Shown: positions 36,112 to 63,804, counted from the whole stretch's first letter. The stretch is DNA of 63,804 nucleotides, filler included, from Lenisia limosa (GCA_001655205.1; 6 parts of 6 records of this genome joined end to end with filler, not necessarily neighbours in it); one strand, 5' to 3'. Numbers and translations: made by a program. The notes: generated from the sequence alone by a model not told the origin.

Positions 36112-36117
36112 TTAACC
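36112..36117. repeat. Left target-site duplication TTAACC
   Basis: Identical hexamer at 53503-53508 immediately outside the right TIR. Confidence 0.9.
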
Positions 36118-36156
36118 CATCATAAGCAGCTAACCCGAAAAAGGGGGGGGGGTTTT
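36118..36156 (+). repeat. Left terminal inverted repeat (39 bp)
   Basis: CATCATAAGCAGCTAACCCGAAAAAG10TTTT is the exact reverse complement of 53464-53502. Confidence 0.95.
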
Positions 36157-37729: not shown

Positions 37730-38785
37730 TTAGATTTCTCGTATATTTCCACTTCGAGTCATTTTCGGAATATGCTGCCTCTGAACATTTTCCTTCTCAA
37801 TTACAGGCAAATAATCAATGTTTGTATGACCTGTATTAAGTAATAGATCCTCTTCATAGTAAAATTTATCATCAGTATCTCCCTTTTCGTAACCTTCACT
37901 TAAATAGTACTGCGTTGGATTTGTTTTTCCACGCTTTGTTGACTTATATATTATAAAGGTTTTTTCACTCCAGTTAGGAGAAACATGCCTGTCACGATCC
38001 ATTCTATTTCCAATAAATTTTCTCACTACATCCCCCACCTTTAATTTTCCTGGGGGTATATCTTTATATTCTTTCTTTTTTGGTTCTGCGTTGTGAAACT
38101 GAAGATTAACTGGTCTTTCATCAGTGGCACTGTGTACCTTGTGATTATACGCCCATACAGTATCCGCTAAATATGGTTGCCAGTCATAATTTACTCGCCC
38201 AGTGTTTAGTTCAATTTTTTTCATACGCTCATAAAACGGCAAACTAATTGTAGCATTGACACGCTCGACATAACTGTTTTCATTTTTCATATATGGCGTA
38301 TTAATTATCAAGTGACTTGGCCTTCCGTTAGGGCATCGTTTTGTTTTTAAATTATCTCTAAACAGTTTATTATCAAATTCTTTTCCTGCATCAGCCTGTA
38401 GTGCGGTTGGCCACTCCTTGCAGTCCGTTAGTATCATGTCTTCAAAGGCTGACCATACTTCCTGAGAGTTAGTTGACTTAATAGGCCGACTCATTAAATA
38501 TCTGCTTCTTACTATGAGGCAGTTTAGGCACAACACCTTCTTGGTACTTCGAGCACTAGCCAAGTAGAGAACATCAATCTGGTATCTATCATAATTGTTC
38601 TGGTACTGTGGGAAATGCACAAAGTTTTTAATTGGTCCCTTAGTCCTTTGGTAGATTTCATGTTCGCCTTGGTCCTTAACAAATGCCTCAACTTCAGCTT
38701 TCGTGTAGTCTAACCCTAATTCTTCAACAACATCGTAAAATCTTCCTGTGAATCCATACTTATTCCATGCTTCAATTAATTCCAT
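37730..38785 (-). CDS. Retroviral-like (rve) DDE integrase, Polinton type
   Basis: D71 (YQIDV), D132 (QADAGKEF), E174 (NSYVERVNATI), AYNHKVHS, and a C-terminal LKVGDVVR...PNWSEKTFII typical of Polinton integrases. Confidence 0.93.
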   Translation of the reverse strand: MELIEAWNKYGFTGRFYDVVEELGLDYTKAEVEAFVKDQGEHEIYQRTKGPIKNFVHFPQYQNNYDRYQIDVLYLASARSTKKVLCLNCLIVRSRYLMSRPIKSTNSQEVWSAFEDMILTDCKEWPTALQADAGKEFDNKLFRDNLKTKRCPNGRPSHLIINTPYMKNENSYVERVNATISLPFYERMKKIELNTGRVNYDWQPYLADTVWAYNHKVHSATDERPVNLQFHNAEPKKKEYKDIPPGKLKVGDVVRKFIGNRMDRDRHVSPNWSEKTFIIYKSTKRGKTNPTQYYLSEGYEKGDTDDKFYYEEDLLLNTGHTNIDYLPVIEKENVQRQHIPKMTRSGNIREI

Positions 38786-38815: not shown

Positions 38816-41800
38816 TTATGTTTTCAGGTTATCTCTAATTTTTTGGATCATTCTCTCTCTGCCCTCTTCAATTCCACACTTCTTATACAACACCTCAAGT
38901 ACCCTTGTGACATGCTTACTCTTACACCTCAGCATACATTTATTTTTGTTGTCAGAAATATTTATCTTGTTTAACAGTTCAGCCACCTCGTCAACAGCCT
39001 CGTATTCAATAATAGGAGCCTTAAACTTTTTTGCTTTAATGGCCATGCGTACATTCACACACTCCAAGTCATTTAAGTCTTTCATAATTTTTATGTACTT
39101 CTTTTCAAATACGTTTTCTACCATAGCAGCACTGAAGTAGTACACTCTACTTAAATAATGAATAGAGTGACAGTTTTCAAACTTCTTAAGCTTGGACTGC
39201 CTACCAGTCTTGTGAAACTGTAGTCTCTTCTCTAGTTTAAGTAAGTCTTCTTGACATGTGTCATCTAGTGATACACACTTACCTAAGTATTTCTTTAAGT
39301 CAATCGTGCTAGTAGTGTCTCCATACATATCGTTCTCATTTGAAACATACTTAGTGCTACCAACATAGCAAGAGATCTCATCTTCATCATTCATTTCGTA
39401 TATAAGGGCTACTCTAATTCTACGAGGCTTTAATTCAACCATCCCTTCATAGTTGTAAGGCTCAAAGACAATGTCTTTAACATTTTCGTAGTCAACAATA
39501 TTTACTTGGCTAATGTCTCTACACCTACTCAAGGCAACATAGAGTGCGTTTTTAGTGAAATATGGTTTCTTATTCCTTAACTCCACATGCACATTATAGT
39601 CACCTTCAATAGTACTACCTTGAACCTTGTGAGCTGTGATTGCGTAGGCCTTATCAAAGAACTCTGCAAACTCTGCTTCAGTTACCAATACGTTGTGGTC
39701 CAACTCCACTCGATCGTCTTGTACACCAGTGACAGTATAAATTTTCGAGTTCCAAATTTCTTTCTTACCTCTGTTAACCTTACCAATGTATTCTTCTCCC
39801 ACAATACTACCAGTGAAGCTGTTATTAATACTGTGCCTCAAACTATTGGTGTAGACAATATTTTTCTTGCACTTGGCCTTAGCTGTTGTATTGAACCCAG
39901 TGATATCACTCAGAGTAATAGTCTCACTTGCTGTAATCTTGTTCATAACTTCCAACGTACTGGGAGTATATCTGTTAGCATTTTCAATGTAGCTAAGTTT
40001 AATTAAATTTTTCATTTCTTGTTTCATCACATTATTATTCTCATAGTCATATGTCTGAACACTAACTGGAGGTAGTTGATTCATATCTCCAAACATAATC
40101 ATTCGTTTGTTCATATTCATAAGGCGACACATGGCGATCACACTTACACTACTGATTTCGTCAAGAAGAATTGTCTCGTAGTGGGCAACATTACTTTTGA
40201 AGAAGCTCTCAAGTGTATAGCTGTTATCACACCCTAGTTTCTTAAGGTTTTGAACAACGTAGTTAGTTGATGATACAACACAACAGTTCTCTGTCTCACC
40301 ATATACTTTGGTAAGCAGTGTTGTTTTACCACATCCAGCTCCGCCCAATACCATACAGTTTTCATTGTTACCAGGCAATTCAGTTACAATATTCCACTGA
40401 CTAAGTGTACATTCGATATCACGCCTTGGGTAGTCAGTACAAAGCAGTCTCTTCAAGTCCATAGGTTTATCCTTGTTGAGACGCAACCTATCTGAGTTCC
40501 TCGAAGCAAACCTCTCAAGTTTCTTGGAGCATTCTTCAAAGTAAATGGCGTCTGTTCTCACAGCTACTACCTCTTCGGGACATACATTAGCAATTTGAAT
40601 TAAGTTAATGAAGTTGGAATGGATAATTTGTCTGAAGATACTGCAGTTATCACTCACTTTACGCGACCTACTTGTGGATTTCACAAAATATAAGTCACCA
40701 ACCTTCTTCACCTTACTAAACATATTTTTCTCCATGAGGTCACGATACTCCAAGAAGTCAACCAAGTTACTGTCTGTACTGGTGTACGAGTTATTTGTTG
40801 CTGTATATTTTTTGTGAAGTGTACCAATGAAGCAGTTTGGCATATTTTTATTGTCCCCTAGTTCATACTTAATGTAGTCGAGCATTAACTTAAAGGTATC
40901 ACCCTTCAGGAATGAATAGGCTTGGATTCTCGCCGTAATTGCCAAGTCCAACTTAAGTGTCTTCAACACGTACTCAATAAAGATATAGTTATAAACTCCG
41001 GGCTTAAATGGAATATGGTTGATAGTGAATTGTTCAGCCACAAAGTACTCTCCACAAACAATATCGTCTGTTGGGTTGTATGTGTAAGGCTGGAAACTAT
41101 CCAAGTTGGTATATACTGGGAAATTATTTGTGTTGCTGTGTAAAATATTCCTATAGCACCTCTTCAAGTCAATTTCATAACATTCAGGTACAGGCATCTC
41201 TTCATCATCTTCATTATATTCTTGATCTGGAGTTTTTACTACACCAGTTATGGGACCAACAAAATTGTTATCAAAAATATTTCTTGTTCCCTCGTTATAG
41301 TACGACACAGGAATTTCACCCACCATACAGTCACACAATTTACGAGCCACTGATGAGTAGGTCATGTGATCGTCTCTAAACTGTTCGAAGGGAAACTTGG
41401 TCCTAATCTTTTTAGTATAGCTTAAGGGACACAGGCTAAACGAGTCAAGGCGTTCAATTAACATGGGACATTCTTTATTGGGATAAACCATTAGAGACAC
41501 TTCCATCCGTGAGTCAAAGTCCAAACTATTAATTTGAGTTCCTGTTGTTTCGTGAATAGCAGCAACAATTGGTTCAAGAGGATTTTTAATAATAATTCTT
41601 CTGTAACCTTTCGTGTAGTAGTCCATCATTTCCTTTTCAGAAAAGCCATAGACATCTTCACTACTGAGGTCCAGTGTTTTAGGGTTTAAGTCTTGAATTT
41701 CAATCATTCTGTCCTTGCCAGCCAGTGTGCGTATGTCGCCATTACCATACAATATTTGCTGAATAACGTCTACGTCAGTAATGAGGTCGACATGGTTGTT

Positions 41801-42976
41801 GTTCACATATATACAAATTACGTTGTCAGTTTTTTGGGACTTGTCATGTTTGTTGTACCGAACTAGTACCTTCTTGTCAGGTCCAACTACATAGGCCGTA
41901 ACACTCGGATACCTGTCAGTCCAAACATCTAGGTCCCCAATAGAATAATTACAGTCCTTACCAACAACCTTGTTGAAGTCATTAAAGAATTCAGGTTTAC
42001 TCATTGTTTTGAAGGGAGATCGGAACTTACACTTATCCCATAATATGGTAACTAAGCACTTGCCGTCCTCACTTGGAACATAGTAGTTTAAAAATTCCTG
42101 TTTCAAGACTTCTTGACCAATCAGTAAAGCATTAATATTGATTTTGTTAATGGGATGAATATTTAAAACTTCAATGAGTTCTACTTTGCCTCCACTATCA
42201 ATGAATCCATCCTCTCTGTCAAGTTCCTTCTGGACTGCAAACTGTAACTTAACGTTTTCAATCCCTGTATCCATGTCTTTTGGCACAAAGAATTGTTCTA
42301 CTGACTGCCATCTCGTCTTAGTGGTACCCAAACGATCTTCACCTCCGTCCTCTGGTTTAAATTCATAAAGCACAGTGACTCTGTAGAGATTATGGGTCTC
42401 AAACTTAGCTACATTATCAATGATTCTTGTTAATTCAGCAGGAGTAAACTTCTGGAGATTTACAACGCCTAAGGTATCATAGTTGTCCTCCAAAAGCTGT
42501 GTGATACGCGATAAGTCATTGGTTCTTACACCTCTGGTAGCTCCTAAGTTTTTAGTGTAATCACTCTTCTTAGTAGCAGCTCTAGTCTTACGCAGTTTAT
42601 CAACAGCATTCTTAACGTTCTTGACGGTTTTATTGTTCAAGACAATATTGTTATCCTTAGCGTATTGCTGGTACTTGTAGTCATTGGTTGTCTTATCAAT
42701 TGGATCAGCCCTAGCCCTTCTTGTACCCTTTAATATATTTGTAAAGTCAGGAGCAGTGTTAGCTCTCTGTTTTTGTTTCTCTTCAATAGCTTTCATTTGT
42801 TCCACTATAGCTAAATATTCTCTCTGACTAATCTTATGGCTAGTCGTATTGTTTGAATACTTGTTGTTATAGAGATCAATGTTGGCTTCTTTAATTTTGT
42901 TTTTTTTGTAGGCAGTTACTCCCTCAGAGGGGTCAATAACCTTTTTACCGTACCTGTGCAATTGGGTGTTTTTCAT
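38816..42976 (-). CDS. 1386-aa replication protein: OTU-like domain, derived family-B polymerase, SF1 helicase, GIY-YIG-like domain
   Basis: PolB motifs EIDLKRCY (D603), KNMPNCFIG and VRTDAIYF (D809). SF1 motifs GGAGCGKTT, LLDEIS, FGDMNQLPPV, AYAITAHKVQGST and LYVALSR. C-terminal IYE...CYVGST...RLQFH. N-terminal PSEDGKC (C307) and NNHVDL (H395). Confidence 0.85.
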   Translation of the reverse strand: MKNTQLHRYGKKVIDPSEGVTAYKKNKIKEANIDLYNNKYSNNTTSHKISQREYLAIVEQMKAIEEKQKQRANTAPDFTNILKGTRRARADPIDKTTNDYKYQQYAKDNNIVLNNKTVKNVKNAVDKLRKTRAATKKSDYTKNLGATRGVRTNDLSRITQLLEDNYDTLGVVNLQKFTPAELTRIIDNVAKFETHNLYRVTVLYEFKPEDGGEDRLGTTKTRWQSVEQFFVPKDMDTGIENVKLQFAVQKELDREDGFIDSGGKVELIEVLNIHPINKININALLIGQEVLKQEFLNYYVPSEDGKCLVTILWDKCKFRSPFKTMSKPEFFNDFNKVVGKDCNYSIGDLDVWTDRYPSVTAYVVGPDKKVLVRYNKHDKSQKTDNVICIYVNNNHVDLITDVDVIQQILYGNGDIRTLAGKDRMIEIQDLNPKTLDLSSEDVYGFSEKEMMDYYTKGYRRIIIKNPLEPIVAAIHETTGTQINSLDFDSRMEVSLMVYPNKECPMLIERLDSFSLCPLSYTKKIRTKFPFEQFRDDHMTYSSVARKLCDCMVGEIPVSYYNEGTRNIFDNNFVGPITGVVKTPDQEYNEDDEEMPVPECYEIDLKRCYRNILHSNTNNFPVYTNLDSFQPYTYNPTDDIVCGEYFVAEQFTINHIPFKPGVYNYIFIEYVLKTLKLDLAITARIQAYSFLKGDTFKLMLDYIKYELGDNKNMPNCFIGTLHKKYTATNNSYTSTDSNLVDFLEYRDLMEKNMFSKVKKVGDLYFVKSTSRSRKVSDNCSIFRQIIHSNFINLIQIANVCPEEVVAVRTDAIYFEECSKKLERFASRNSDRLRLNKDKPMDLKRLLCTDYPRRDIECTLSQWNIVTELPGNNENCMVLGGAGCGKTTLLTKVYGETENCCVVSSTNYVVQNLKKLGCDNSYTLESFFKSNVAHYETILLDEISSVSVIAMCRLMNMNKRMIMFGDMNQLPPVSVQTYDYENNNVMKQEMKNLIKLSYIENANRYTPSTLEVMNKITASETITLSDITGFNTTAKAKCKKNIVYTNSLRHSINNSFTGSIVGEEYIGKVNRGKKEIWNSKIYTVTGVQDDRVELDHNVLVTEAEFAEFFDKAYAITAHKVQGSTIEGDYNVHVELRNKKPYFTKNALYVALSRCRDISQVNIVDYENVKDIVFEPYNYEGMVELKPRRIRVALIYEMNDEDEISCYVGSTKYVSNENDMYGDTTSTIDLKKYLGKCVSLDDTCQEDLLKLEKRLQFHKTGRQSKLKKFENCHSIHYLSRVYYFSAAMVENVFEKKYIKIMKDLNDLECVNVRMAIKAKKFKAPIIEYEAVDEVAELLNKINISDNKNKCMLRCKSKHVTRVLEVLYKKCGIEEGRERMIQKIRDNLKT

Positions 42977-44451: not shown

Positions 44452-45765
44452 CTACTCGATAAACTTGTTAATAGTCTCGATGTTGTGTTCAGGATTATCT
44501 TCCTCGAAGTACTGATACAGATTATAGTACGGTATGGTCTTCAGCATATTGTAAACTGCAATACAGTAGTAGCCACACAGTGCTGTGTCATCATTTTGTA
44601 TTTGAATATCATTTCGAATAATTTGTTTATCCGCAAAATTGTTGGTAATCAGTTCCTCATCAGCTATACTACCGAAACTATCAAAGTAGAACCACAGCTT
44701 ACTATTTAGCTTGTAAAGCAGTACCCAGTGTACACCACCAGTTGTGTCTATACCGTCTTTAGTCTTCTTCATGTTACCAGTATTAATGATTGCTCCCAGA
44801 GTATCTTTTTTGGCAAAGTATTCTTTAATACCTTTTTCATCACTCATAAAGGTTTTTATATTGTACTTCTCCTCTATCTCTCTGTTACTGAGTGCAGGTG
44901 CATCAATACCAATATCTGGTTCTATGTCTTCTTCTTCTTCTCCTTTGTTGCTGTAAATCTGTTCAACATCATATAACTCGTTACGTACTATTACGTCCTT
45001 GTCAGCTTTTAACCCTTGCTTCATTCGCGGTTCTAATAGAGAGCCAATTAGTTTCCAGTGACCAGCTCTAACACGTGTGTGCTTAATCCTGTCTTGAGGG
45101 AAAAAGGCAATACATGGCTTGTCCTCCTCGTTATCAAAGGCATTGATGATTTCATTTCCAAACTTCACACTACGAACTCTACTCAGCCCCATGTTTTCTC
45201 CGATGAAGGTTGCAACCGCTATTTGGCTGTCATTCATGTGTCCAAACGAATAGAACGCCTTGGCATTTTCCTTGATTTCATTGAAGTCCATTCTACCATT
45301 CTTCCACTTGTGTACCACAATGGTTGGACTGATATTGAAGTGCCTGCCACTCGTGAACAAGGGAGAGATTTGTTTTATAACATCCTTGTGTACTATGTCA
45401 TCAAATATAACTTCATAGCTGATTTCATCTGGATGGTCTTTAGCTGCATCTGCTGCTTTTTTCTTAATAAACTCATAGTCTATACTTGTTGAGCTTAAGT
45501 CAATGATGTCTAATTTAATATTTCTTTCGGTTGCTAGTTCATCCAGTGTTTTTAATATGGGTTGGTCAGTTGAGGTCGTATATACCAAGTACCCTGTAGA
45601 CTTCCTGTCTTGAAGAACGTCAAATACTAAATGAAAAGTTTTTCCACTACCTGTTCCTCCAATCATAACTGTACCGAAACAGCCATCTGGAGTAAATTTA
45701 GAGCGATGGACTTTTTGGACTTTGTTTTGATCGTCCAATAATACTTGCTTTTTAGAAATTGTCAT
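44452..45765 (-). CDS. A32/FtsK-HerA packaging ATPase fused to an adenain-type cysteine maturation protease
   Basis: Walker A GGTGSGKT (K42), Walker B VIFDD and LFTSGRHFNIS. Protease GVHWV (H346), FYFDSFG (D362) and QNDDTALCGYYC (Q390/C397). Confidence 0.9.
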   Translation of the reverse strand: MTISKKQVLLDDQNKVQKVHRSKFTPDGCFGTVMIGGTGSGKTFHLVFDVLQDRKSTGYLVYTTSTDQPILKTLDELATERNIKLDIIDLSSTSIDYEFIKKKAADAAKDHPDEISYEVIFDDIVHKDVIKQISPLFTSGRHFNISPTIVVHKWKNGRMDFNEIKENAKAFYSFGHMNDSQIAVATFIGENMGLSRVRSVKFGNEIINAFDNEEDKPCIAFFPQDRIKHTRVRAGHWKLIGSLLEPRMKQGLKADKDVIVRNELYDVEQIYSNKGEEEEDIEPDIGIDAPALSNREIEEKYNIKTFMSDEKGIKEYFAKKDTLGAIINTGNMKKTKDGIDTTGGVHWVLLYKLNSKLWFYFDSFGSIADEELITNNFADKQIIRNDIQIQNDDTALCGYYCIAVYNMLKTIPYYNLYQYFEEDNPEHNIETINKFIE

Positions 45766-48380: not shown

Positions 48381-49808
48381 ATGTCAACGAACTTTATTGA
48401 ATCCATGTTGCGTGTCGATGACAAGAGCCATGATATTACGGTCGAAAGTGTTATTGACCACCAAATAGAAAATACTACTTCACAAAATGAACCAACTGTA
48501 ACTTTTAAGTTAAGTACAGACGCGTCTTCATTCATTGAAACAAGTACTCTCTCTATTTATTGGAGAGAAAAATTAGAACTAGCAAATGGAGGCGTTTATA
48601 ATCTTGCAGCTACTACTGCTGTTGACGATACTGCTGAAGCTATATCTGGAAAACAATCCTTCGTCTATGCTAATTCTTATCACCAAATTAAGTCAATTAA
48701 AATATACAGTAATGGAACAGATATCTTACCTCCTGTTGATAATTCTACTGCAGGGATTATAGCGGATAACTATATGGATAAATATTACACTAATGACTAC
48801 TTGGATACAACTGGCCTTACTGAATTTGTTTTCAATCCAAGAAGTGAGAACACTGCTGCTCTCGGTAAAGCCGTTTATATTGGTGGTAATTATGTTGAGC
48901 GTGAAATTTTGCTTCCAGTGTTGTTCCCATTTATGAAGACTAATCCCGTTTTACCTCCCTCTTCGTCATATATGTTTGAGATTACTTTCAGAGACTCTTC
49001 AGAAAGTATTTGTAAAACCAGTGATGCTGCACTTCCTGTAAAGATAGACCGTGAAAAGGTTGTGCTAAAGAATCGTAAAATTAAATTGTCAGATAAAGGC
49101 AGAGCAGCTTACTTGCAAGGACTTTCCATTATTGACGATAAAATTGTACACACATACCTTCATCAAAGGATTTCAAATCCTGTACAAATAGGGTCAGCTA
49201 AGGTTACTGAGACTAGTACTTGTAATGTTGACAATCTCGCAACAGCGATAGACACTAAGGTTATTGATTGGGGTGCTTCTAGGGCAACTGGAACCTATGT
49301 GACAAGAAGGCTGAAAAGTCATCAGGTTGACATTGGTATTGATACATTTCCTAGGAATGGATATGAGAACAAGCTTGCCACCAATGATGTATTCAATTCT
49401 TATGTCCGTTATAGACGTGCGTGTATGAATTCAAGCGCTACACACAAAGATGTAGTGTTAACTATTAAGGACTTTAAAAATGCAAACGGAAAATGGCTCG
49501 ACTGTATTGACGTGTTACCAGACCGGATTCATCGCCAATTTCTGACAACTACCAATAATCAAGTTATTGATAAAATTGAGTTAGAAAATGCACCTGGGAA
49601 TTCTAATACTTATTTGTACACTTGTACGTTTGGTGATGCTGTCCTACTGTATGATGGAAAGCAAAGTGGAAATTTTAAAACTATTTATACCAAAACTCCA
49701 CTGGAAAACAATCCAAAATTGGATGTTAAGAAAACTATGCGCCAAAACAAAGCAGCAATGAAAGCAAGGAATGCTAACCCTAATGCTGAAACAGAAATTG
49801 AGAGCTAA
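48381..49808 (+). CDS. Major capsid protein (double jelly-roll, Polinton-like)
   Basis: 475 aa and beta-rich. VTFKL...FIETSTLSIYWREKL, HQIKSIKIYSNGTDI and LLPVLFPFMKTNPVLPPSSSYMFEITF follow the Polinton MCP pattern. It lies in the structural module near penton and fibre. Confidence 0.75.
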   Translation: MSTNFIESMLRVDDKSHDITVESVIDHQIENTTSQNEPTVTFKLSTDASSFIETSTLSIYWREKLELANGGVYNLAATTAVDDTAEAISGKQSFVYANSYHQIKSIKIYSNGTDILPPVDNSTAGIIADNYMDKYYTNDYLDTTGLTEFVFNPRSENTAALGKAVYIGGNYVEREILLPVLFPFMKTNPVLPPSSSYMFEITFRDSSESICKTSDAALPVKIDREKVVLKNRKIKLSDKGRAAYLQGLSIIDDKIVHTYLHQRISNPVQIGSAKVTETSTCNVDNLATAIDTKVIDWGASRATGTYVTRRLKSHQVDIGIDTFPRNGYENKLATNDVFNSYVRYRRACMNSSATHKDVVLTIKDFKNANGKWLDCIDVLPDRIHRQFLTTTNNQVIDKIELENAPGNSNTYLYTCTFGDAVLLYDGKQSGNFKTIYTKTPLENNPKLDVKKTMRQNKAAMKARNANPNAETEIES

Positions 49809-51334: not shown

Positions 51335-53188
51335 ATGGAACTACCAAGTGGATGGATTACGAGTGGGTCAATAAAAAATGGGACCACTGCTTCTGGAGAG
51401 ACCGTATCTTCTGTAGCAGGACCTGCCGGGATTGGGTTTAATTTAGATGATGATTTAAACTTTGATATTGGTGGAAAGAAATTGGTGAACGTCGCTTTGC
51501 CTGAAAATGATGGTGACGTATGCACTAAAAAATACGTAACAGAAAAAATAATTGAAGACAATATATTAGACGCTACTGCCATACAGAACAGTGCCAACAC
51601 TATTGGTGCTCAAATTACAGCGTTAAACACTACACAAGCTGGAGTTTATGATGATAAAATTTTACCAGCATATAATCACTCAGTTGAGGAGCATTTTGAA
51701 CCGCAGTTATTTCAAGACCATCTCACTGCCCACTTTGCCGGAACATACTNNNNNNNNNNNNNNNNNNNNNNNNNNNNNNATTTAAAAGTAGAAGGTGACT
51801 TTGAAGCAACTGGTTTCAAAATTACTCAAAGCGATATAGTTTATAATAATAGAACGTGGGCAACCCAGTATAACAGTGATCCTGTTGACAACATTGTTTT
51901 CAATATGAAATCGCCAAATGTTTTCAATGTTAGAAGTATCTCATTAACTCTGGAAGCAAGTAAAATTTCTGATGGAAGTAGATGTGGCGCTGATGATGTA
52001 ACTGTTATCTTATCCATCAATAGTGTTGTTAAAGTTCAATTAAATAATTATAAGTTTACCTCATGGGGACTGAATACTATAGCAATAGCTGATGTGAACA
52101 ATCCCATTCAAATTAATGCTAATGATATTATACAAATTGAAATGATAAATAATTCTGCTGATAGAAAAATAGTAACTAAGTTTCAAGACAAAATTGACGC
52201 TGAATTTATTAGTTTGAACATGGATGGAGATTTATCAATCGAAAAAATGATTGAGCTCAGGCTTGTTGGAATTGAAATTGATACATCTACAATACTAGCC
52301 ACCGAATGGGATGAAGGTGAAGGAAGACATATTCTAAATGTAAGTGAACGATTAAAATTAGGTGCTTTTGATAACGTTGAAACTGAAATGAATACAATGA
52401 GTGACCGAATTGATAGTGTAGAACTTAATAATACCAATCAAGACATATTTATTGCTGATCATAGCACTCGGATTACTAATTTAGAAGCTGCAGGTGGTAC
52501 TGATTTAACACCGCTTGAAAACAGAATAACAACTGTTGAAGGAACTTCTAATACAAACAGTGGAACCATCACTAATATTAATTCAACCCTTGGAAACCAT
52601 ACAACTTCCATAACTGGTCTAAATACAACAGTAAATCCTTTTATGGGATACTTTAACACAATCAAAGAAAAATTTAACAAGATGTTAGAATTACATAGTG
52701 TAATAGGACATATGGCTGCTCAATTCCAAACTACAGGACCTGCTGCTATTCCTAATGGTCAATTAACTACACATATTCCTTTTGAAGCTGGTTCTAATAT
52801 ATCAGGTTATGTCGAGGGATTAACCAACGCTTCAACAGGGAAAATGTTAATATTAAAGGATTGTTTATTTCTTATTGAAGCAAACTTATACTTTGATAAT
52901 AGTTTAGACGTGTCTAACACAGGTAGTCTAAATCTTGCAATAGCAGTTAATGGTGAAAGTAATTGGATGCAAACCGTTAGGTCCCATGAAACAGCACCAA
53001 CTTTCACTATAAATAGTTCCAAATTAATGAACTTATATGCTAACGATGAAATTCAGTTAGTTATGGATCATAATAATCGAGATGGGTTGACACATGGTAA
53101 TAACACTTACTATACACATTCTTCATGGTCTTTGACTATTATCCAGCCTAAAGAAATGAATAGTTTATCACCCATATCAGACTATTAA
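51335..53188 (+). CDS. Fibre/spike protein with a coiled-coil stalk and C1q-like head; frame across the 30-N gap unverified
   Basis: Fibre collar motif KLVNVALPENDGDVCTKKYV, heptads (RIDSVE..RITNLE..RITTVE), and a C-terminal TGKMLILKDCLFLIEANLYF...IAVNG...SSKLMNLYANDEIQLVM. Confidence 0.7.
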   Translation: MELPSGWITSGSIKNGTTASGETVSSVAGPAGIGFNLDDDLNFDIGGKKLVNVALPENDGDVCTKKYVTEKIIEDNILDATAIQNSANTIGAQITALNTTQAGVYDDKILPAYNHSVEEHFEPQLFQDHLTAHFAGTYXXXXXXXXXXXLKVEGDFEATGFKITQSDIVYNNRTWATQYNSDPVDNIVFNMKSPNVFNVRSISLTLEASKISDGSRCGADDVTVILSINSVVKVQLNNYKFTSWGLNTIAIADVNNPIQINANDIIQIEMINNSADRKIVTKFQDKIDAEFISLNMDGDLSIEKMIELRLVGIEIDTSTILATEWDEGEGRHILNVSERLKLGAFDNVETEMNTMSDRIDSVELNNTNQDIFIADHSTRITNLEAAGGTDLTPLENRITTVEGTSNTNSGTITNINSTLGNHTTSITGLNTTVNPFMGYFNTIKEKFNKMLELHSVIGHMAAQFQTTGPAAIPNGQLTTHIPFEAGSNISGYVEGLTNASTGKMLILKDCLFLIEANLYFDNSLDVSNTGSLNLAIAVNGESNWMQTVRSHETAPTFTINSSKLMNLYANDEIQLVMDHNNRDGLTHGNNTYYTHSSWSLTIIQPKEMNSLSPISDY

Positions 53189-53463: not shown

Positions 53464-53502
53464 AAAACCCCCCCCCCTTTTTCGGGTTAGCTGCTTATGA
53501 TG
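53464..53502 (-). repeat. Right terminal inverted repeat (39 bp)
   Basis: AAAAC10TTTTTCGGGTTAGCTGCTTATGATG is the exact reverse complement of the left TIR. Confidence 0.95.
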
Positions 53503-53508
53503 TTAACC
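53503..53508. repeat. Right target-site duplication TTAACC
   Basis: Matches 36112-36117. Confidence 0.9.
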
Positions 53509-53808: not shown

Positions 53809-53908
53809 NNNNNNNNNNNNNNNNNNNNNNNNNNNNNNNNNNNNNNNNNNNNTTAATTAATTAANNNNNNNNNNNNNNNNNNNNNNNNNNNNNNNNNNNN
53901 NNNNNNNN
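53809..53908. other. Artificial scaffold linker N44-TTAATTAATTAA-N44; the same 12-mer sits in the gaps at 19722, 31734, 58210 and 60244
   Basis: Identical 12-mer with stops in all frames, embedded in Ns five times. Adjacency across these joins is not proven. Confidence 0.9.
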
Positions 53909-55499
53909 TTCGGGTCTGAATATATTCAATGAAGGGAAAAGATCGTGCTAGATGGCCAAGCTGTTTAAGCCAGGGGTGGAATATCCCTTTGTTTTCTCCT
54001 CTATTAACCCCAGCATATTAAACTAATTACACCTACTATTACGCAAACAGAAACACACCAGAATAGCAGAATCACTTAATACAGGAAAAGGAGAATCTTG
54101 TAAAGCCGGAGCACAAAGTGTCTATCGTTCCACTGGATGATGAACTGTGCACGTTTGATGATTTGGACCTGGAAGTGGTCAAGGGACAAGTTGTCGATGA
54201 CGATGATGAGGTTGGTAGCTACGATTATGGTTGACCACTGATATGAGGAAATCCTCTCTTACCTGTTAGGAACCACGCTTAAATGTCGTCTACCCCTCAG
54301 CTCAGAAGTCTGCATCCCCCCAATCCTCCTTTTCATCCAACCATGTCAATCACCCGTTCACTTCACAACAATCAGTTCCTTCTTTCCCTCAAAACGTTAG
54401 TGCTCTTTTGATTGCCTTCCTTGTATATTATTACTATTCTCCCTCTTCTAATGTTGTAGACCTCCCAGTTTTACCCCACCCCTGCGACCAACTTTGGCTC
54501 GACTTTTCCTCAAAATCCATCGTAGGTGCAACTGATAGATGCCATGATGATATTTATTTTGGGATCCATATCTTGACTCTTTAGATCGCTCAATTCCACA
54601 AAAACACAGTTTTCCTTTTCTCCCAACCGAGGTCGACCCTCCATCAACCCGTTCAGGTGAGGGGGTCATTTGCTGGGATTGAGTGGTAACATGGGTTCCT
54701 TCTGATTGATGGGACGCTGTGTTATTATTTTGTTCATACAACTACAAATATATATGTATGATATATATAATTATATCAATTATATCAATTATATTTATGT
54801 TATGTACTTTAGCCTTATCGTTTTGTCTAGTTCACCGTTTTAGTTTCCCGTCGGAAAACGCCCCCTCAAGCCCTGCTGCCCCCCTTCCATTTGAACAAAG
54901 TATGGCTTTTTTCAACAAACCCTTCTTTTGGGATTGTTATTGCTACCATCTTGGGGGGCTTATCGTTGTTTTTTGTTATCTGGATGCTAGTGGAGGGGGG
55001 CGGAGAACTACTAGGTTTGTTTCTTCACCCATCAAGAATCTTACCCACTCAGATCCCCACCAGTTCCCGCAACACAGCACCCAACATCAGCCTACTTTTT
55101 TTAATAGGTATGTCTTTAAAGCACATCGTACTTATATATTTTGTGGGTGTGTGTGTGTAATCCCATCCCCCCCCTCCCCTACGCGATCCCCTCATCAACT
55201 TTCCCCTCCCCAGTGTTCCTCAGCCAACAGTTAACTTCCCAACCGGCCAGCCACAGTCCCCTTTCAGGTCAGTTCACTTTTCATTTAGAATATTTCAGTT
55301 GGAGAAGGGGGGGGGGGGGGNNNNNNNNNNNNNNNNNNNNNNNNNNNNNNNNNNNNNNNNNNNNNNNNNNNNNNNNNNNNNNNNNNNNNNNNNNNNNNNN
55401 NNNNNNNNNNNNNNNNNNNNNNNNNNNNNNNNNNNNNNNNNNNNNNNNNNNNNNNNNNTGTGCAACTTGCCCTTTTAATGTGCTCTGACCGTTAGGCCG

Positions 55500-58010
55500 C
55501 TGAAAACACGCCCCTCTGTCACAGTTCCCCAATTTTCAACAGGGCTCTCTTCTAATGACCGTGAGTGGCCCAGAACTAATTTATGGGTATATTAGTGGTG
55601 TAATAATTAATCTCCTGTACACTCCCTAATCTTGAAGGATTGACATCATCACCACAACCAGTTGTTCCAACAGTGTTCAAATTTGCACTTTCTTGATGAT
55701 AAAGGTGAATTGGTCATCATAAAGGCTTCGCATAAACTTTCTATTTTCTCACTGAGTGATACTGCCCTACCACAATCATGGAATGGGATATCACCCATCA
55801 CTTGATTTGCCTTTCACCCCAGTTTAGGATGGTATGCACCACTTCCAACCTCTCGGTAGCCTTCGTTTAATGGCGTAAATAGCCTTATGTTCTATTGATA
55901 CAGATCTCTGAAACAAACGCCATTCAAGGCATTTGAAAAGGCAAAAATAGAAGTAGACCACCATATGAACGAAAGAGAGGCTTAATCAAGGAACTTGATA
56001 AAGTCATGGAGACGCTCTCGCACAGCATGAATGCGACCTGCTACTGAGAGACTAAATGGTTAAGCGGAGAAATCGAAATGAGGTAATCCGGTAAAATAGA
56101 ATTTCGACCACACATGTACAGGTTTTGAGCCATTTTTGTATTTCTGAAAACTGACCCGTACCCCCCCCCCCCCCCNNNNNNNNNNNNNNNNNNNNNNNNN
56201 NNNNNNNNNNNNNNNNNNNNNNNNNNNNNNNNNNNNNNACTCTGACTTGTCAAGCCATACGACAGAAGGAGAACGCCTCTTGTTCGGGGGTTTCGCCCAT
56301 ATTGCATCCTAAAAGGGTGAGCTGAGGAACTAGAAAAGAAAGGCTCTTTTCCACAAACATCAAAAAAAGAATAATAATCCAGTCCTACATAAACTCTTTA
56401 AGCGAAACGGTTTGCCCTCGGTTAAGTTCGTCGTATACACTGCCAAATTTTTTGACCCTCTGTGTTTGGTCTGTTTTGACAAGGCGGAGAATGTCTCGGA
56501 TCTGTCTCTGAAAAACAATCAAAAATATGACACATGGCTCAAAACAGTGTATAAAAACAATCTAACAGAGCGTACTGAATGTGCATGTTTGTTCTTCCAT
56601 TTCTCTCAAATCAAACGTCAGCACAAAATACGACCCCCTATCTGACTAATGTATGAACCACTACCGCATAATATCCATACCCCCCCCCCCNNNNNNNNNN
56701 NNNNNNNNNNNNNNNNNNNNNNNNNNNNNNNNNNNNNNNNNNNNNNNNNNNNNNTACCTCCGTTTCAGCCATTCCAGATGCTTCAGCCATTCTCTTATTA
56801 TACTCGGGAAGTGCCTACATTGTTAAATACAACAGACATGGGCCGTTTCATTTCAATAACAACAGCGAATACGATCAGATATGATATGATGTAATATGTA
56901 TCAACATTGACGAACTGTCATGCAGGGAAACTAAACTTGCCAGGTAAATGAAATTTATCAGCGTTTATTGACCTGCTCAAAGGTACAACAGAATGATTCA
57001 ATGGCTTTAAAAATGTAATACATCAATGGGTGGGGCATTTGCGTATCGGTCAAACTTCATCCCACAAACAGCGGGGTAACTCTGTAGAATCGCCTCAATC
57101 GTCTTCTTAAAGGCGATCTATGGGTATGAGTGGTATAATGGACAGCTTCAGCTAAGAACAGCTTCTTTAAAATTGATAGGATAAGAACTGTACGGTAAGA
57201 TAGATGCGCCTTGAAAAATGATTAAAATTAATGATATCAAAAGAACAACAAAGAGATATAACGCTCACATCGACGGTGCTCTCTCCGAGTTGGAAGGGAG
57301 TTCGGCAATTGGGACAACAAACCTACGTAAGTATGAATAGCGATTCAATTAGTTTTAAAAAGACACATCCACACAGCATCCACATTTATGTATTCACCCC
57401 CNNNNNNNNNNNNNNNNNNNNNNNNNNNNNNNNNNNNNNNNNNNNNNNNNNNNNNNNNNNNNNNNNNNNNNNNNNNNNNNNNNNNNNNNNNNNNNNNNNN
57501 NNNNNNNNNNNNNNNNNNNNNNNNNNNNNNNNNNNNNNNNNNATTCACTTGGTCAGCCTTCTTCATAATCAACTGTTATTCCGTAAATCTTTCCCAACGG
57601 TTCCAAACAAAAAACCAACATAATGACAAAGAAAAAATCCGTTTTGTGGATTGGGAACCATTACGGGTACTTTAAAGTTGAAGGACTCAACCCCCCCCCC
57701 CACTCCGAGCAAAAGACGTGTCCGCAGTTCGACAAAACCGAAGGGTACACCATGTACTCCATACAAATTGCACAGGAAATCGCATCTGCAACATCACCAG
57801 GGATGTCCCCTTCAATTGTCGGCTGATTTGTTAGTGGACAGAAGTGGTTTCTGTAAGGTTCCCTTTAAATTTGCTAATCATACCAGTTTTCTGACTAAAA
57901 ATCTGAAACCAATATGTGATAAAAACCTTGCCAACTTGGGGTGGCGGCGGGACATATGTCACCATCTGAGTGGCAGTACGTTGTCTTTTGGCTACAGCTT
58001 CGAGCTCTGA
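55500..58010 (-). CDS. C3HC4 RING-finger protein (putative E3 ligase), multi-exon, boundaries approximate
   Basis: CAICMEYMVYPSVLSNCGHVFCS (~57710-57780) and CCPNCRTPF (~57290-57320) lie in separate exons. Further exon-like segments extend to ~55500. Confidence 0.6.
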
Positions 58011-58265
58011 AAATAATCAGAAATGTAGAAGATTATACTATAGCTAAAAATGACAACTATTAGAAGCTTTTTAAATAATGACCGGACCAAAACTCCGAAT
58101 TGAAGCAACCAACCTTCATCATGATGCCTCTTCAAGGTCACATGATGGGCGGAAAGATTTTCAAGNNNNNNNNNNNNNNNNNNNNNNNNNNNNNNNNNNN
58201 NNNNNNNNNTTAATTAATTAANNNNNNNNNNNNNNNNNNNNNNNNNNNNNNNNNNNNNNNNNNNN

Positions 58266-60199
58266 CAAGCTGTTGAAGGAGAAGAAGGTGAGGATCTCTG
58301 GATCAAGCTGTTGAAGGAGAAGAAGTGAGGAGCTCACGATAACAAATTACAAGAAGACGGGATCCTGAGGGCGACAATTCTGACTTAGGCAAAGAAAGAA
58401 GCATTTTATGAAATCCTATGACAGTAAATTAGATCTGATGGGCTAAATGTAGGGGCAATAAGTCAAATGTAATCGTATTATTTCTTATGTAAGAAGTACG
58501 AGTTTGTGACCATAATCCATGTCTTTGCTGAGTTTGCTTCTGCCCATCTTGAGTGTATCATATAGAGCAGAGTTGATTTAAGTTTGTTTGTTTCATAAAT
58601 TTGCCAAATAATCATTTTGAAAACTGGACGCTTTATATTCCAATATAAAACAACGACTGAACCATCTTAACTCACTGTAACCATTGATAGGACGAGGACT
58701 GGAACATGGGCAACATCACCTTCACCCTCATGAACAGGCGCAAGAACGAGAACACCATCGCTTATGCTGAGGTTTGTTCATTTCTGATCTTCAAATTCCT
58801 CACTTGAAATTGGGTTTTAGTGATAGTGTCATTTCCCTCCCTCTCCCTCTCTCCAATATTGTTATAATCTGAACCCCCTTTTTACGCTTCACCGCTATTC
58901 GTATCATTTTTTCCCTCCTCACCCCCTAGTCCCACGACCAAGCCCTGGTGGGAGATAAGACGATCTCCTTCTGGCTCATGGATGCGGAAATGTACACCAA
59001 TATGTCGCTCCTGGCCCCAGAAACCAGTGTCATTTCTCGCGGAATGGCCCTACATAAAATGATCAGGTAAGGCCTTGTTGGAGCCATTGACTCAGTTTGT
59101 TGTTTAATGTTAGCGTTTTTCATTACTTGAGAAATGGCTCTTACATACTTCATTCACTTTGATTGATCGTATAGATCTTGGTATTAATTTGTACCATTTA
59201 CTGTCTGATTACATTTTTGACCCATAGTTGAGATTAATTACATTTAATGTTCAGATTGATTACATTTGGCCTTGGAGGCGAGGGAATTCTGTGCTTCATG
59301 GGCAACGAGTTCGGCCACCCTGAGTACATTGACTTCCCAAGAGAAGGAAATGGAGAATCGTGGGGGGGCTATGGGGATGGAATGGAATAGTGTGGTACCA
59401 ATAACACAAACTTATCATATAGATACCACATATATACTACACATATTATATACAGCTACATATGATCACAGTATTACTATGTATGTGATGGAATATCAGT
59501 ATATGATCCTCTGCTGAATATTTATGAATACAGGTTCAAGAACGCTTACCGCCAATGGAATCTTCCCAAAGACCACCTTCTCAGGTCAGTTGGCTGAACT
59601 CCTTGAACAAAACAGAATATCCTGGAGTATTGATATATTAACCTTGACTAGAGTCCAAGTTAAATCTTCTTCTCTGTTGATTCCACGGTTTTCGGTTTTT
59701 ACTGCTTAAGATACGGCCAACTCGCGGCCTTTGACAAGGACCTTCAGTATCTGGAGGGGCAGACGGGATGGCTTGCTGCACGCCAGGACTACGTATCTCT
59801 GACCAATGAAGGCGATAAGGTGGAAGGGGAGTAAAATAGGAAAATTTATGAAACAAAAAAGCTCAAATCATGAGGGGGTGATAAATGGTGATAAATAAGA
59901 TGGAGAGAGGGGGATGGTTAAATCAAGAATGGAGAAATACAACTTCGTCGTAATCGTTTCAGATGATCGTGTTTGAGCGCGCATGCAGGGACGGAAAGAG
60001 AATAGTGTTCATCTTCAACTTCCACCCTAACAAGTCCTACGAGAGCTATCCCATCCCGGTGCCCTCACTTGGAGAGTAGGATGGGGAATTGGTATGATTC
60101 AAGATGTAAAGCCATATGAGCAATATGTCTTCTTTTTATGACTTGATCTATGACTCGGAGGGGGGGTGGAGAGACTTGATCTATGACTCGGAGGGGGGG
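58266..60199 (+). CDS. GBE1: 1,4-alpha-glucan (glycogen) branching enzyme, partial between gaps
   Basis: [94 protein letters not shown]. Confidence 0.93.
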
Positions 60200-63100
60200 N
60201 NNNNNNNNNNNNNNNNNNNNNNNNNNNNNNNNNNNNNNNNNNNTTAATTAATTAANNNNNNNNNNNNNNNNNNNNNNNNNNNNNNNNNNNNNNNNNNNNT
60301 TCCAAAGTTAAATTTATTTACTTCATCATTCATCTTTAGAAATCATAATTGGCGTTAAAAAACACCGTTTTGGTAAAAGGAAACACATAGTCATGCGAAT
60401 CCCAAAAGGAGTGAGGCAAAACCCCAAAGGGTAAAATATTAGGTCAAGAACTTCTCGACAAGATCTTACAATTGGACCCTTTTCAAAGCGTACTCCACCG
60501 CCGTCGATGCGCCTTTGAAGCTGACGGGGGTGCCCAGGCTCACCCTGACGCTTCTACTAAGTTTCCCGAGGGTTTGAAGAATGCTACTGGCATCATTATT
60601 CTTGATGACGTTGAGAACCGTCCTGGACAAAATGCCAATCGTCATCCAGATGTTAAGCCCCACAGATGCTTTTTTGTTGAGTTTGGCGGTTGTCCTGAAG
60701 ACCAGAAAGAAGTGCCAAAATATCTTCAAAGGCTTCTTGAACCATCTTCATCTTCAGCTGTGAAACGAAATTGAAGGGTCTTCCAGTTGAGCAAGTCTCG
60801 AAAATACAAAGTTGCAATTGTCTGGCTGTCATGGACCAAGCAATCCTCTATCCCACCCGCATTGACCATACACTGTTTGTCATGTATAGTCTTTATATAA
60901 CTTATAAAACTCCATTGTGATGCAAAGATGGCCGCGGAGCAACCTCCTACTCCCACGCCCCGACTTATCCCTTTCGTTTTTGAGGCGAGGAGACTTGTTT
61001 CTCACACTGAGACGGTTTCCATCCCTTTTCTCAGGCGTCCAGTCATCCCTCTATATCGCCTCCAAAACTACTATCAAATTGGAGGAGCCCAACACGACCT
61101 TGTTGGAAGTAAACCTGGCGCTCCGAGGTCAAGACGGGCAAATTTTCATATTGTTTTGCTTTGTCCATCTGATCTTCCAGTGAGTATCAACTTACCGTTG
61201 GTCCACAAGGAGCCCTATCTTCACCACGCTTACATCCAGTTTGTGTCAAACTATTTTTCAGTAATAATATTCTCTTTGTAGGACACATGAATATCGTGTT
61301 GAGAGATGTTCTACCTCTACGTCGAAAAAAGGGGCTCCAGTTCTCTTCGGACGGCACACCTAATGTGTCAGTGACACTCAGTCGGACCGCCATTGCCGTT
61401 GACCGCAACGAAAAGGCAACACTGGTTATATCTCCTTCAGATGTCTCTGACTCCCCTCTCTCCGTCCTATGGTAAACAACTTCACTGAAGCCGGTTAATC
61501 ATGTTTCCATTCATATAACAAATTTTTTTAAGCGTTCTCCCCTGGGGGGTCCTGCCTCTCTGCAGGCCTACAGCACCACTGATTCTCCAAGACGATGAAT
61601 TCAGCACAAGTCTGATGCGGTTGGTAAAGCAAGCTTAACATCTAAGAAATATTCAGTTTACCCTACCATCATCCACCTGATCGAGCTCGCACTGGACAAG
61701 CAAAGCAGTATGGCTCCCCCGTGAGTCTAAAATGTTACCTTACTTTCAAGGCTGCCGAACAATTCAACAGCCTAATTGGCGGATTTCGCAGGAATGTCCC
61801 CTCGATGAAAGTAGTAGGCTAGCAAAAAATTGTTATCACTGTACTTTGCATTCTGGCCCTTCGTGGTCGAACAGGAAGAAGGACTTCTTGGCCCACCACG
61901 CCCGCGCTGAGAGAGCCGTTGTTGCCCTGGACCTAGCTCAGAAAATCGTTGTGCCCGAATGCGAGCTGCCACGGGTCTACGACAAGACCATGATGTGTGT
62001 AATTGTTGTGGTATACAACGTTTTTCTGACATGAAACAATTAGTCAATTCTTGTCAAATAAGATATGTTATCTTGATTAGGGATGTGTTACTACAACTGA
62101 AGACACTGCCAGACCTCACCTCCTTCTTGCGGCTCAGGAAGCTTGTTCGTCCTGGCTGTCCGTTGTATGAACCTATGTAGCACACTGCTAATGAAGAACA
62201 AAGGAGTACGTCCTCATAAAACGGTTGAAACATCTGCCTCAAGGATCCAGCTCTCAGAGTACTTGCTTCCTGCATGACTTCACAGAAAACACACAGATAC
62301 TTCCGCCACACTAGCTGAGCCCACAATTCGCCAAGATAGCAGTGCCCAGCCGTCCATCGCCTGGAACTCTTGGTAAAGTATCCCGTAAGGGATATGACAG
62401 GAGTTTTGCCGTCCGCTTCCTCACCTACCCATTTCTCTCCGCAGACTGGGACTACTTCGACTACGCCAGTTCCCCAGTCCGTCCCCCAGACCATTACATC
62501 CACAGAAGACCGCGGAAGATAGTGTAAAAAAAGCCTTGACCTCCGTGATGCCAGAGGAGCCAACAAAATGGCGTCAATTCTTTTTTAACGGTTTTACTTT
62601 CGCTCTTCTGCCTGGTTCTAATAATGATGTTCGTCTTTATCGGCTGTCAGCAGTCAGCGCCTGTCGTTCAAAAATGGACTATTTGAAACTTCTCCTCACG
62701 TTCTTCTCGCTTTCAGTTTCTTTTTCCTGGCTTTCCTTTTGGGGATTCAGGAGGGATTGCTGGCGGGCGTTTTATTTTTATTTCCTAAAAAAAAACACAA
62801 CCCTCCAAAAAATAATGACATACTAGCAAATATCCCCCCCAGCATAAGAAGAAAAAAAACAAAGTATGGTAATTTGTTTTTGGTATCCATGTTTAGTGGT
62901 TGTGATAATTTGGGGTATGGGGGATTTGTTTTGTGCNNNNNNNNNNNNNNNNNNNNNNNNNNNNNNNNNNNNNNNNNNNNNNNNNNNCACTCCAAAAAAT
63001 ATATGTACATGTACAGACCGGGATACGTCTTGACCGATTTTCCTTGGGAAATCACATAGCAAATTGATCAAGACTTATCTTGGTCACTGTATACCACGGA

Positions 63101-63200
63101 GTAAGTATTAGAAAAAAGGAAATTGTGTAACAAAAACTACAAACAAAAAAAATCACAGAGCAAACATATCACACCACCCCCCACATTGTCCATGGGATGG

Positions 63201-63315
63201 TATGAAGAATTGGCCTGAATTTGGTTGTTCATCGGAGGGTATGAATAATTGGCCTGAATTTGGTTGTTGGCAGGAGGGTATGAAGAATTGGCCTGAATTT
63301 GGTTGTTGGCAGGAG
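63201..63315 (-). repeat. Three 39-bp tandem units, probably coding (13-aa PANNQIQANSSYP repeat)
   Basis: Units start at 63201, 63240 and 63279. The minus frame is open and ends at a GTGGGG donor. Confidence 0.8.
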
Positions 63316-63804
63316 CCATTTGGGGGTATTGCAATGGTGGAGCTCTCTAAGGGGGAGTAAAACTGGAAAATTTTGACACAAAAAAAAAAGCCCAAGGGGA
63401 GGGGGGGTAAAATATATTTATGAAACAAAAGAATCAACTTTTTTGGCTACCATTTAGGGAAAACAACAAAACACAGTCCAGGCCAGTCGCTTCTGCAGCA
63501 ACACCACATTCCATCACTCCATATTAGAGAGGTCTCCTACTGTTCCAAAAAAAGATTTTTTTTAAAAAAAAACCCCGAATACAATGAAAAAAATCATAAT
63601 ACAAGGAATGTCAGCTCTATAATACTATATCTTATATTGCAATATTGAATATATTATTTGATGTGATATTATTATTACAGCTGTGGAGAATATTCGTAAT
63701 AAATAATCAACCTTGTTAGCGTAGGGCTGGGTCTGAGTGTTACGTGCCAAATCACTTGTCACCTTCATAGCCAAAGCCGACTAAAAAAAAAAAGGGGGGG
63801 GGGG

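Follow-up and report, generated by a model that had tools for sequence, protein, structure and literature searches.

Gene and domain organization

The window analysed here is a 63,804-nt stretch of Lenisia limosa DNA (GCA_001655205.1; parts of six records joined end to end with filler), and it contains an inserted virus-like element, bounded by terminal inverted repeats (TIRs), in which the minus strand carries a long open reading frame (ORF) at 38816..42976. This ORF is free of stops over 4161 nt and, read in the standard code, gives a protein of 1386 aa, in which an earlier note made from the sequence alone had seen a family B DNA polymerase (PolB) fused to a superfamily 1 (SF1) helicase and had proposed an active, non-proofreading, helicase-coupled replicase. 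From the N terminus to the C terminus the domains follow one another as a basic region, an OTU protease, a middle domain of about 140 residues, the polymerase palm and fingers, the SF1 helicase and a GIY-YIG nuclease (Table 1). The ORF and the motif positions had been given correctly, with DLKRCY at residue 603, KNMPNCFIG at 710, RTDA at 807 (which places D809) and FVGP at 572, but the OTU protease, the GIY-YIG nuclease and the domain of about 140 residues at the exonuclease position had been overlooked, as had the loss of the KxY motif and of the thumb.

Table 1. Coordinates of the fusion gene, its domains and motifs, and the other features of the element. Positions are counted from the first letter of the window, and residues from the first residue of the fusion protein.
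Feature	Coordinates	Strand	Basis
Whole ORF, pPolB-S1H fusion protein (Tlr1-like helicase family)	38816..42976	-	Stop-free translation; 132 homologues
N-terminal Lys/Arg-rich region, residues 1-289	42110..42976	-	Poor alignment with the two closest homologues; no Pfam family
OTU-type cysteine protease (vOTU), C307/H395, residues 302-407	41756..42073	-	Cys/His columns; OTU fold match
Middle domain, where PolBs have their 3'-5' exonuclease, residues 431-574	41255..41686	-	Well modelled; structure ranges
Polymerase palm/fingers (motifs A, B, 2b-like, C), residues 575-829	40490..41254	-	AlphaFold2 pLDDT 91-98 over most; phi29-like fold
Motif A, DLKRCY (D603, Y608)	41153..41170	-	D603 116/116; Y608 99/118; aligned to phi29 DVNSLYP
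Motif B, KNMPNCFIG (K710, N714, G718)	40823..40849	-	K 127/129, N 127/130, G 127/130; aligned to phi29 KLMLNSLYG
Motif C, RTDA (R807, T808, D809)	40547..40558	-	D809 115/117; T808 106/117; aligned to phi29 DTDS
SF1 (Pif1/RecD-like) helicase, residues 859-1160	39497..40402	-	Pfam, PHROG and PDB profile matches
GIY-YIG nuclease, residues 1190-1310	39047..39409	-	Family-level Pfam and I-TevI matches
Left TIR, starts CATCAT	36118..36156	.	39 nt, perfect complement of right arm
Right TIR	53464..53502	.	Perfect complement of left arm
6-bp target-site duplication TTAACC	36112..36117 and 53503..53508	.	Direct reading
Probable rve-type integrase, 351 aa	37730..38785	-	Pfam rve E 4.8e-4 at 20.8 bits, short of the 32.6-bit cut-off; target-site duplication and TIRs fit
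C2H2 zinc-finger ORF, 108 aa	43030..43356	-	zf-C2H2 E 2.9e-5, just below cut-off
A32-like packaging ATPase with probable adenain-like cysteine protease, 437 aa	44452..45765	-	Pox_A32, Peptidase_C5
Double jelly-roll major capsid protein, 475 aa	48381..49808	+	ESM Atlas features and structure

We find that this protein almost certainly belongs to the known pPolB-S1H (Tlr1-like helicase) family, as a new and divergent member; pPolB stands for a protein-primed PolB. An exhaustive HMMER scan with residues 201-860 as the query retrieved 132 proteins at E ≤ 1e-3, 48 of them at E ≤ 1e-10, and most are 1100-1500 aa long. These homologues, which are representatives at 50% clustering, share about 20-30% identity, and the best of them about 30-35%. 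A word-indexed protein search with residues 200-860, or with the profile of a smaller alignment (A2), returned the query itself as the sole match, and the same kind of search with residues 560-1180 returned two relatives; no related locus was found in viral contigs or metagenome contigs with the protein or with alignment A1. Conservation was counted over the occupied rows of an alignment of 133 rows (A5, the 132 homologues and the query), and a second alignment (A8) joins 36 full-length members with the whole 1386-aa protein.

The helicase identity of the C-terminal half is, from its sequence, beyond doubt. Pfam finds Viral_helicase1 (E 2.6e-14), with AAA_19 and AAA_30 at residues 859-972; a RecD match lies at residues 1064-1154, the PHROG match is a Dda-like helicase (E 8e-20), and family profiles match Pif1 and RecD helicases of the PDB at E 1e-15 to 1.9e-29. 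The helicase residues G881, K884, E940, Q967, R1002, Q1119 and R1151 are invariant in all 36 full-length members. The nuclease that follows is weak in this protein alone (Pfam GIY-YIG, E 0.021), but the same Pfam family is found in 14 of the 36 full-length members (best E 6.8e-8), the family profile matches I-TevI (1mk0) at E 4.4e-4, and the GIY-YIG residues Y1193, Y1204, G1206, H1255, E1291 and N1308 are nearly invariant in the 36-row alignment.

Fold and sequence evidence for the polymerase domain

Residues 290-860 were modelled with AlphaFold2 from an alignment of 70 of the 133 sequences (A7), in which the best-scoring rows were kept and very long rows and most short fragments were dropped. 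The model has a mean predicted local distance difference test score (pLDDT) of 85.2 and a predicted template modelling score (pTM) of 0.83, and its confidence is low at model residues 130-139 and 535-571 only. A model made from a 3-sequence alignment was discarded (pLDDT 30).

All nine matches that Foldseek found in the PDB at E ≤ 0.001 are phi29 DNA polymerase (E 1.2e-8 to 1.4e-6). With VIA-align against 48,161 representative chains, the sole match at Z ≥ 8 was likewise phi29 polymerase (Z 13.0, root-mean-square deviation 5.3 Å, 356 residues aligned), the remaining family B polymerases lying at Z 5.7-6.6, and in a second comparison with the same method five phi29 entries scored Z 13.0-13.7 (338-356 residues aligned) and archaeal PolBs no higher than 7.3. 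The Z of phi29 is about twice that of RNA-primed PolBs. Among the viral models of BFVD there are 35 fold matches at E ≤ 0.001, led by an unnamed 999-aa protein (E 1.9e-14) and by the mavirus DNA polymerase (E 6.5e-13, over 563 alignment columns of its 617 residues), and the lower ranks include bidnavirus, tectivirus, GA-1, adintovirus and adenovirus polymerases and poxvirus F12-like proteins. The earlier note had suggested a comparison with phi29 and adenovirus polymerases, and the model does superpose on the first and finds the second among its viral matches. In the ESM Atlas, the three nearest clusters (scores 0.87-0.89) carry PF03175 in 14-45% of their members, which we take as a lead only, and the poxvirus protein F12L stands at rank 12.

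To these structural matches we can add a sequence comparison between the family and a pPolB profile built from phi29, PRD1 and 66 of 80 phi29-like polymerases of IMG/VR (longest ORF 520-700 aa, no X). When the palm columns were compared with this profile by local hhalign, a single colinear alignment resulted, 232 columns long (pairwise P 0.0024, probability 12%); in it the counterparts of motifs A, B and C in phi29-type polymerases are DVNSLYP, KLMLNSLYG and CDTDSI, respectively. A global alignment of residues 405-812 with phi29-type polymerases has P 2.7e-4, and thinner pPolB profiles give weaker results (E 0.32 and E 0.0074). Pfam assigns no family to residues 1-860, even at E ≤ 10. The fold of the model and the colinear profile alignment of motifs A, B and C nevertheless confirm, at the level of a predicted structure, that the N-terminal half carries a PolB fold invisible to Pfam, and the fusion of PolB with an SF1 helicase is borne out on both sides.

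The model also places the motif residues in what is, by its secondary structure, a canonical setting. In model numbering, D603 stands at the end of strand 311-314 and before helix 318-325; K710, N714 and G718 lie in or beside helix 422-431; and D809 is in the hairpin turn between strands 514-518 and 521-524. Local pLDDT around these catalytic residues is 91-96. Between motif B and the 2b-like motif there is an alpha/beta insertion at residues 722-775 (40652-40813 on the minus strand, model 433-486), which has the topological place of terminal protein region 2 (TPR2) of phi29 and is about twice as long; taken alone, it resembles many unrelated small alpha/beta proteins (Z 5-6). TPR1 and TPR2 are the insertions by which protein-primed PolBs are recognised.

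The motif residues are the most conserved columns of the 133-row family alignment, and their recurrence is therefore far beyond chance. Both aspartates named in the earlier note, D603 and D809, are nearly invariant among the homologues (Table 1), and D603, G642, K710, G718 and D809 are invariant in 36 of 36 full-length members, with R782 kept in 95 of 123 occupied rows. An apparent conservation of G817, K818 and Y849 in alignments A5 and A7 (residues 812-860) proved to be an artefact and is absent from the full-length alignment A8; the false columns at 817-855 arose because MAFFT had placed the tail of the query, cut at residue 860, on the Walker A region of the homologues. The misplaced tail is probably also the reason why model residues 535-571 have a low pLDDT.

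The regions preceding the palm

The earlier note had found no exonuclease, and this holds for its catalytic motifs: in the 133 rows, D and E together stay below 70% in every column from residue 396 to residue 602, where Exo I-III would be expected. At the place of the YxGG motif, which the note saw degraded to FVGP, the family as a whole keeps an aromatic residue at 571 (Y in 54 and F in 23 of 104 rows) and P575 (70 of 105), and nothing else. However, the structural alignments with PolBs begin at model residues 142-144, and these correspond to residues 5-6 of phi29 polymerase, 135-136 of Thermococcus PolB, 150 of Escherichia coli Pol II and 362 of the herpes simplex virus 1 (HSV-1) polymerase, which we take to be the starts of the exonuclease domains. 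Because 338-356 residues are aligned to phi29 and about 255 modelled residues belong to the palm, at least about 80 aligned residues fall in the middle domain at 431-574. Comparing residues 405-600 alone with pPolBs by hhalign gave just a spurious 17-column match (E 0.11), and with no support at the level of sequence the idea of an exonuclease remnant is drawn from the structure ranges. We consider the odds to be roughly even that residues 431-574 are a catalytically dead remnant of the exonuclease fold without conserved acidic residues, so that the note's statement was right as to catalysis but may well go too far as to the fold.

The OTU-type protease, in front of the middle domain, is indicated by two columns and by structure. 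All 90 occupied rows have C307 and 97 of 102 have H395, and both residues are invariant in the 36 full-length members. The corresponding part of the model (residues 13-114, extending to 130) matches Otu2, OTUD3, OTUD2 and viral OTUs with VIA-align at Z 6.0-6.4 over 90-104 aligned residues; these Z values are middling, yet they span the whole of a small domain and agree with the Cys and His columns. Residues 1-289 occupy the place of the variable N-terminal and terminal protein (TP)-like domains of the family, going by the positions given in an excerpt of PMC11071308, and they could be a DNA-binding or priming part. By eye, there appear to be repeated G-T/A-T-R-x-x-R-x-x-D segments in this region, and the first ~54 residues are without counterpart in the two closest homologues.

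Comparison with known polymerases and elements

The architecture was named in 2016 by Krupovic, Yutin and Koonin, who called these proteins Tlr1-like helicases and judged the polymerase inactivated; as described in excerpts of that paper, motifs 1, 2a, 2b and 3 are present, motif 4 and the exonuclease are missing, and the C-terminal nuclease is GIY-YIG in Tlr1 and HNH in polinton-like viruses (PLVs) (PMC5499653). In a 2024 preprint the same authors reversed this view: its excerpts add TP-like and vOTU domains to the architecture and predict DNA polymerase activity for the family because the first Asp of the DTD motif is also absent from active polymerases, among them those of mavirus and the pipolins (PMC11071308). 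The earlier note's remark that the polymerase is often considered inactivated is thus true of the 2016 paper and was overtaken by the preprint. The name pPolB-S1H is used in an excerpt of a 2026 paper (PMC13215967).

Our protein agrees with the published pPolB-S1H proteins of Tlr1 elements, PLVs and transpovirons in its length (1000-1400 aa as published), in its variable N terminus, vOTU Cys and His, palm motifs A, B and C, SF1 helicase and homing-type nuclease, and in having neither Exo motifs nor motif 4. It also lacks the first Asp of motif C, as published for the family, and it shares with Tlr1 the GIY-YIG variant and, probably, an rve integrase as the neighbouring gene. It departs from the published description, in which the exonuclease domain is lacking, insofar as, in our model, a folded domain seems to take its place. 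The likeness to Tlr1 and the transpovirons is drawn from published descriptions, and the sequence here is very divergent. The standard code and the flank of about 42% guanine plus cytosine (GC) are features that we take to be unlike Tetrahymena.

Among better known polymerases, that of phi29 (2EX3, 2PYJ, 1XHX) is the best match of solved structure and has motifs A, B and C in the same order, but it possesses an active exonuclease (Exo I-III), both Asp residues of DTD, KxY and a thumb, its sequence identity is 12%, and it is without the OTU, helicase and nuclease domains present here. The pPolB of mavirus is alike in fold, but mavirus has its own SF3 helicase in a separate gene, whereas the polymerase of our element is joined in one protein to an SF1 helicase and a GIY-YIG nuclease. 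Canonical Polintons/Mavericks have a stand-alone pPolB with an exonuclease, and here the Exo motifs are absent and helicase and nuclease are fused. The endogenous polinton-like virus of Oxyrrhis marina (OmPLV) also encodes a fusion of SF1 helicase and pPolB, but, as far as the excerpts of PMC12721341 describe it, in reversed order, with the helicase N-terminal and with a complete exonuclease (Exo I-III) in the pPolB.

Predicted activity of the polymerase domain

We predict from the model and from the conserved columns that the polymerase domain is active as a family B DNA polymerase of protein-primed type, that it does not proofread and that it works together with the fused SF1 helicase, and we put the probability of this reading at about 0.6. 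The proposal made in the earlier note is supported, as a prediction, by fold and conservation; the reasoning is sound, yet the same conclusion was already published for the family in 2024, according to excerpts of PMC11071308. The note was also right to regard this protein as the sole polymerase of the element, since no other polymerase or primase is recognisable there with Pfam and PHROGs, within the sensitivity of these collections.

In the mechanism that we propose, the OTU protease would cut the N-terminal, TP-like part off the enzyme, and the released part would then serve as primer at the inverted termini of the element in its excised or linear form. Both ends of the element start with CATCAT (36118-36123 and 53497-53502), which matches the trinucleotide reiteration at adenovirus ends, and as at those ends the reiteration might take part in priming; in adenovirus, a 3'-GTAGTA reiteration of the template serves jumping back after protein priming, as stated in an excerpt of PMC5175343. 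The palm would then extend the strand by two-metal chemistry on D603 and D809, with the helicase, in place of the missing thumb, providing unwinding and grip on the DNA, and 3'-5' proofreading would be absent. Insertion of the element, with the 6-bp duplication of TTAACC that results, would be the work of the probable rve-type integrase encoded by the adjacent gene.

Several observations weigh against an active polymerase. In motif C the first Asp of DTD is replaced, position 807 being commonly N (73 rows), K (18), R (9), H (8) or S (5), with R in this protein and D not among the commonest residues of the 133-row alignment. Across residues 812-878, the 36 aligned full-length members show no conserved KxY (motif 4), and no thumb domain is present because just 65-125 residues in the family, and 75 here, separate D809 from the Walker A lysine of the helicase. 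Structural alignments to archaeal PolBs stop at about chain residue 577 of the latter, presumably the end of the palm. The hhalign probabilities against pPolBs are low (0.2%, 5%, 12% and 19%), and PF03175 (DNA_pol_B_2) is found in none of 36 full-length and none of 54 short members, that is, in 0 of 90 scanned among the 133 rows. Whether the query was the single protein or a family profile, sequence searches of the PDB return helicases and I-TevI, and no polymerase is among the matches listed (60 of 248 for the family profile). A reiterated trinucleotide at a terminus is expected by chance at about 1/64, and shorter reiterations more often. A full-text literature search found no biochemical test of any pPolB-S1H member.

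These losses could be read, as in the 2016 paper, to mean that the PolB-like domain is dead and supports the helicase structurally or by binding DNA, while the element is copied by a polymerase of the host or of a giant virus. Consistent with this, no row retains the first Asp of motif C, the KxY motif, the thumb and the acidic residues of the exonuclease are gone, PF03175 is missing throughout the scanned members, and the fold matches include F12-like proteins of Turkeypox (E 4.1e-6), Myxoma (M21L, E 1.8e-4) and CPXV060 (E 6.1e-4), besides the F12L entry at rank 12 of the Atlas; poxvirus F12-like proteins are described as inactivated PolB homologues in an excerpt of PMC5499653. A mere structural module, however, would have no reason to keep D603, D809, K710 and N714 at the frequencies of Table 1 among proteins that share 20-30% identity, and the proposal of 2016 was withdrawn by its own authors, as excerpts of PMC11071308 indicate. 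We therefore regard a dead domain as unlikely.

The missing thumb and KxY bear on another reading, in which the palm is active in initiation only, by protein priming or by making short de novo primers, and elongation is left to a cellular or helper-virus polymerase. In phi29-type enzymes the thumb and KxY contact the primer terminus and the duplex, so their absence fits such a division of labour, as does the fusion to a helicase and a nuclease, which resembles primase-helicase replication initiators. The PolBs of pipolins lack the same Asp of motif C and are nevertheless active, according to an excerpt of PMC11071308. On the other side, the domain resembles processive pPolBs in having kept motif B (K710, N714, G718) and Y608, a steric-gate-like residue, and the PolB of mavirus, second among the viral fold matches, is regarded as a full replicase in the part of the literature cited here. 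We give an initiation-only palm about the same small chance as a dead domain, and prefer the active, helicase-coupled polymerase.

If activity is real, it bears on the published disagreement between an inactivated (2016) and an active (2024) polymerase, and it adds a helicase-coupled PolB, without exonuclease and without thumb, to the known polymerase designs. The pPolB-S1H family is widespread, and this locus offers a clean test case with an intact ORF, all catalytic residues and exactly defined ends. As a sequence, the protein only extends a described family by one divergent representative; the possible exonuclease remnant and the termini with CATCAT are minor leads that are new. That both of these hold is doubtful in our estimation: ends fixed by the target-site duplication and starting with CATCAT would then occur together with a folded exonuclease remnant, devoid of its acids and lying between OTU protease and palm, a combination that publications on pPolB-S1H elements have not yet made. 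If both were true, the pPolB-S1H proteins would be true protein-primed replicases derived from a full Polinton PolB whose proofreading domain decayed and was not deleted, and an origin for in vitro replication could be taken directly from the sequence of this locus.

The host element

The two TIRs, at 36118-36156 and 53464-53502, are each 39 nt long and 100% complementary, and they define an element of 17,385 bp. It is a low-GC (31-40%), densely coding insert in ORF-poor DNA; set against the flanks, with about 40-47% GC, the element has 31-38%. In the flanks (1-36000 and 54000-63804) there are few long ORFs, and none of the 15 flank ORFs scanned carries a Pfam family. Runs of N stand at about 51770-51800 and at 53809-53908, the first of which interrupts a 617-aa fibre-like ORF at 51335..53188 (X in the translation), and the second of which is beyond the right TIR, some 300 nt away.

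Since the element is integrated and one of its ORFs is interrupted by a run of N, the fusion gene might be thought a relic undergoing decay within an endogenous element that is dead, and its motifs would then be uninformative on present function; this reading overlaps with the two alternatives considered above. Among sequencing runs, one of DNA, probably from the source sample, and none of RNA was listed as containing the sequence, which says nothing about expression. But the 4161-nt ORF is uninterrupted and the catalytic residues of its four enzymatic domains are all intact, and the identity of the TIRs at 39 of 39 positions, together with the perfect target-site duplication, points to a recent insertion. 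We consider a relic less probable than either of the other alternatives.

Like a polinton-like virus or Tlr1-type element, the insert has genes for a double jelly-roll capsid protein and an A32-type packaging ATPase. The capsid protein (48381..49808) has a feature score of 0.97 in the ESM Atlas and a template modelling (TM) score of 0.70-0.73 to clusters of DJR-like_dom, Capsid_NCLDV or Sputnik major capsid protein. In the 437-aa ORF at 44452..45765, Pox_A32 scores 28.5 bits, above the cut-off of 22.8 bits, and the C-terminal 182 aa match Peptidase_C5 at E 9.2e-4 (19.4 bits, below the cut-off of 21.3 bits); the ORF thus seems to combine an N-terminal ATPase with a C-terminal protease (H..D..C pattern by eye), and in such elements the two are usually separate genes. 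The probable integrase at 37730..38785 has no sequence match in the PDB. The small product of the zinc-finger ORF may bind DNA or have a regulatory role in the element. Several further ORFs of the element have no Pfam or PHROG assignment, there are no Rfam matches in the window, and the exact TIR sequence has no match in viral contigs or metagenome contigs.

A palindromic 14-mer, AAAAAATATTTTTT, occurs in 11 copies in the window (allowing one mismatch at most), where 0.21 are expected. Ten of the 11 copies lie inside the element (38799, 43395, 43916, 43967/43969, 44418, 47578, 49830, 50524 and 51307) and all of these are intergenic, with the remaining copy outside it at 63548, which makes this 14-mer a candidate for a promoter or terminator signal shared by the genes of the element.

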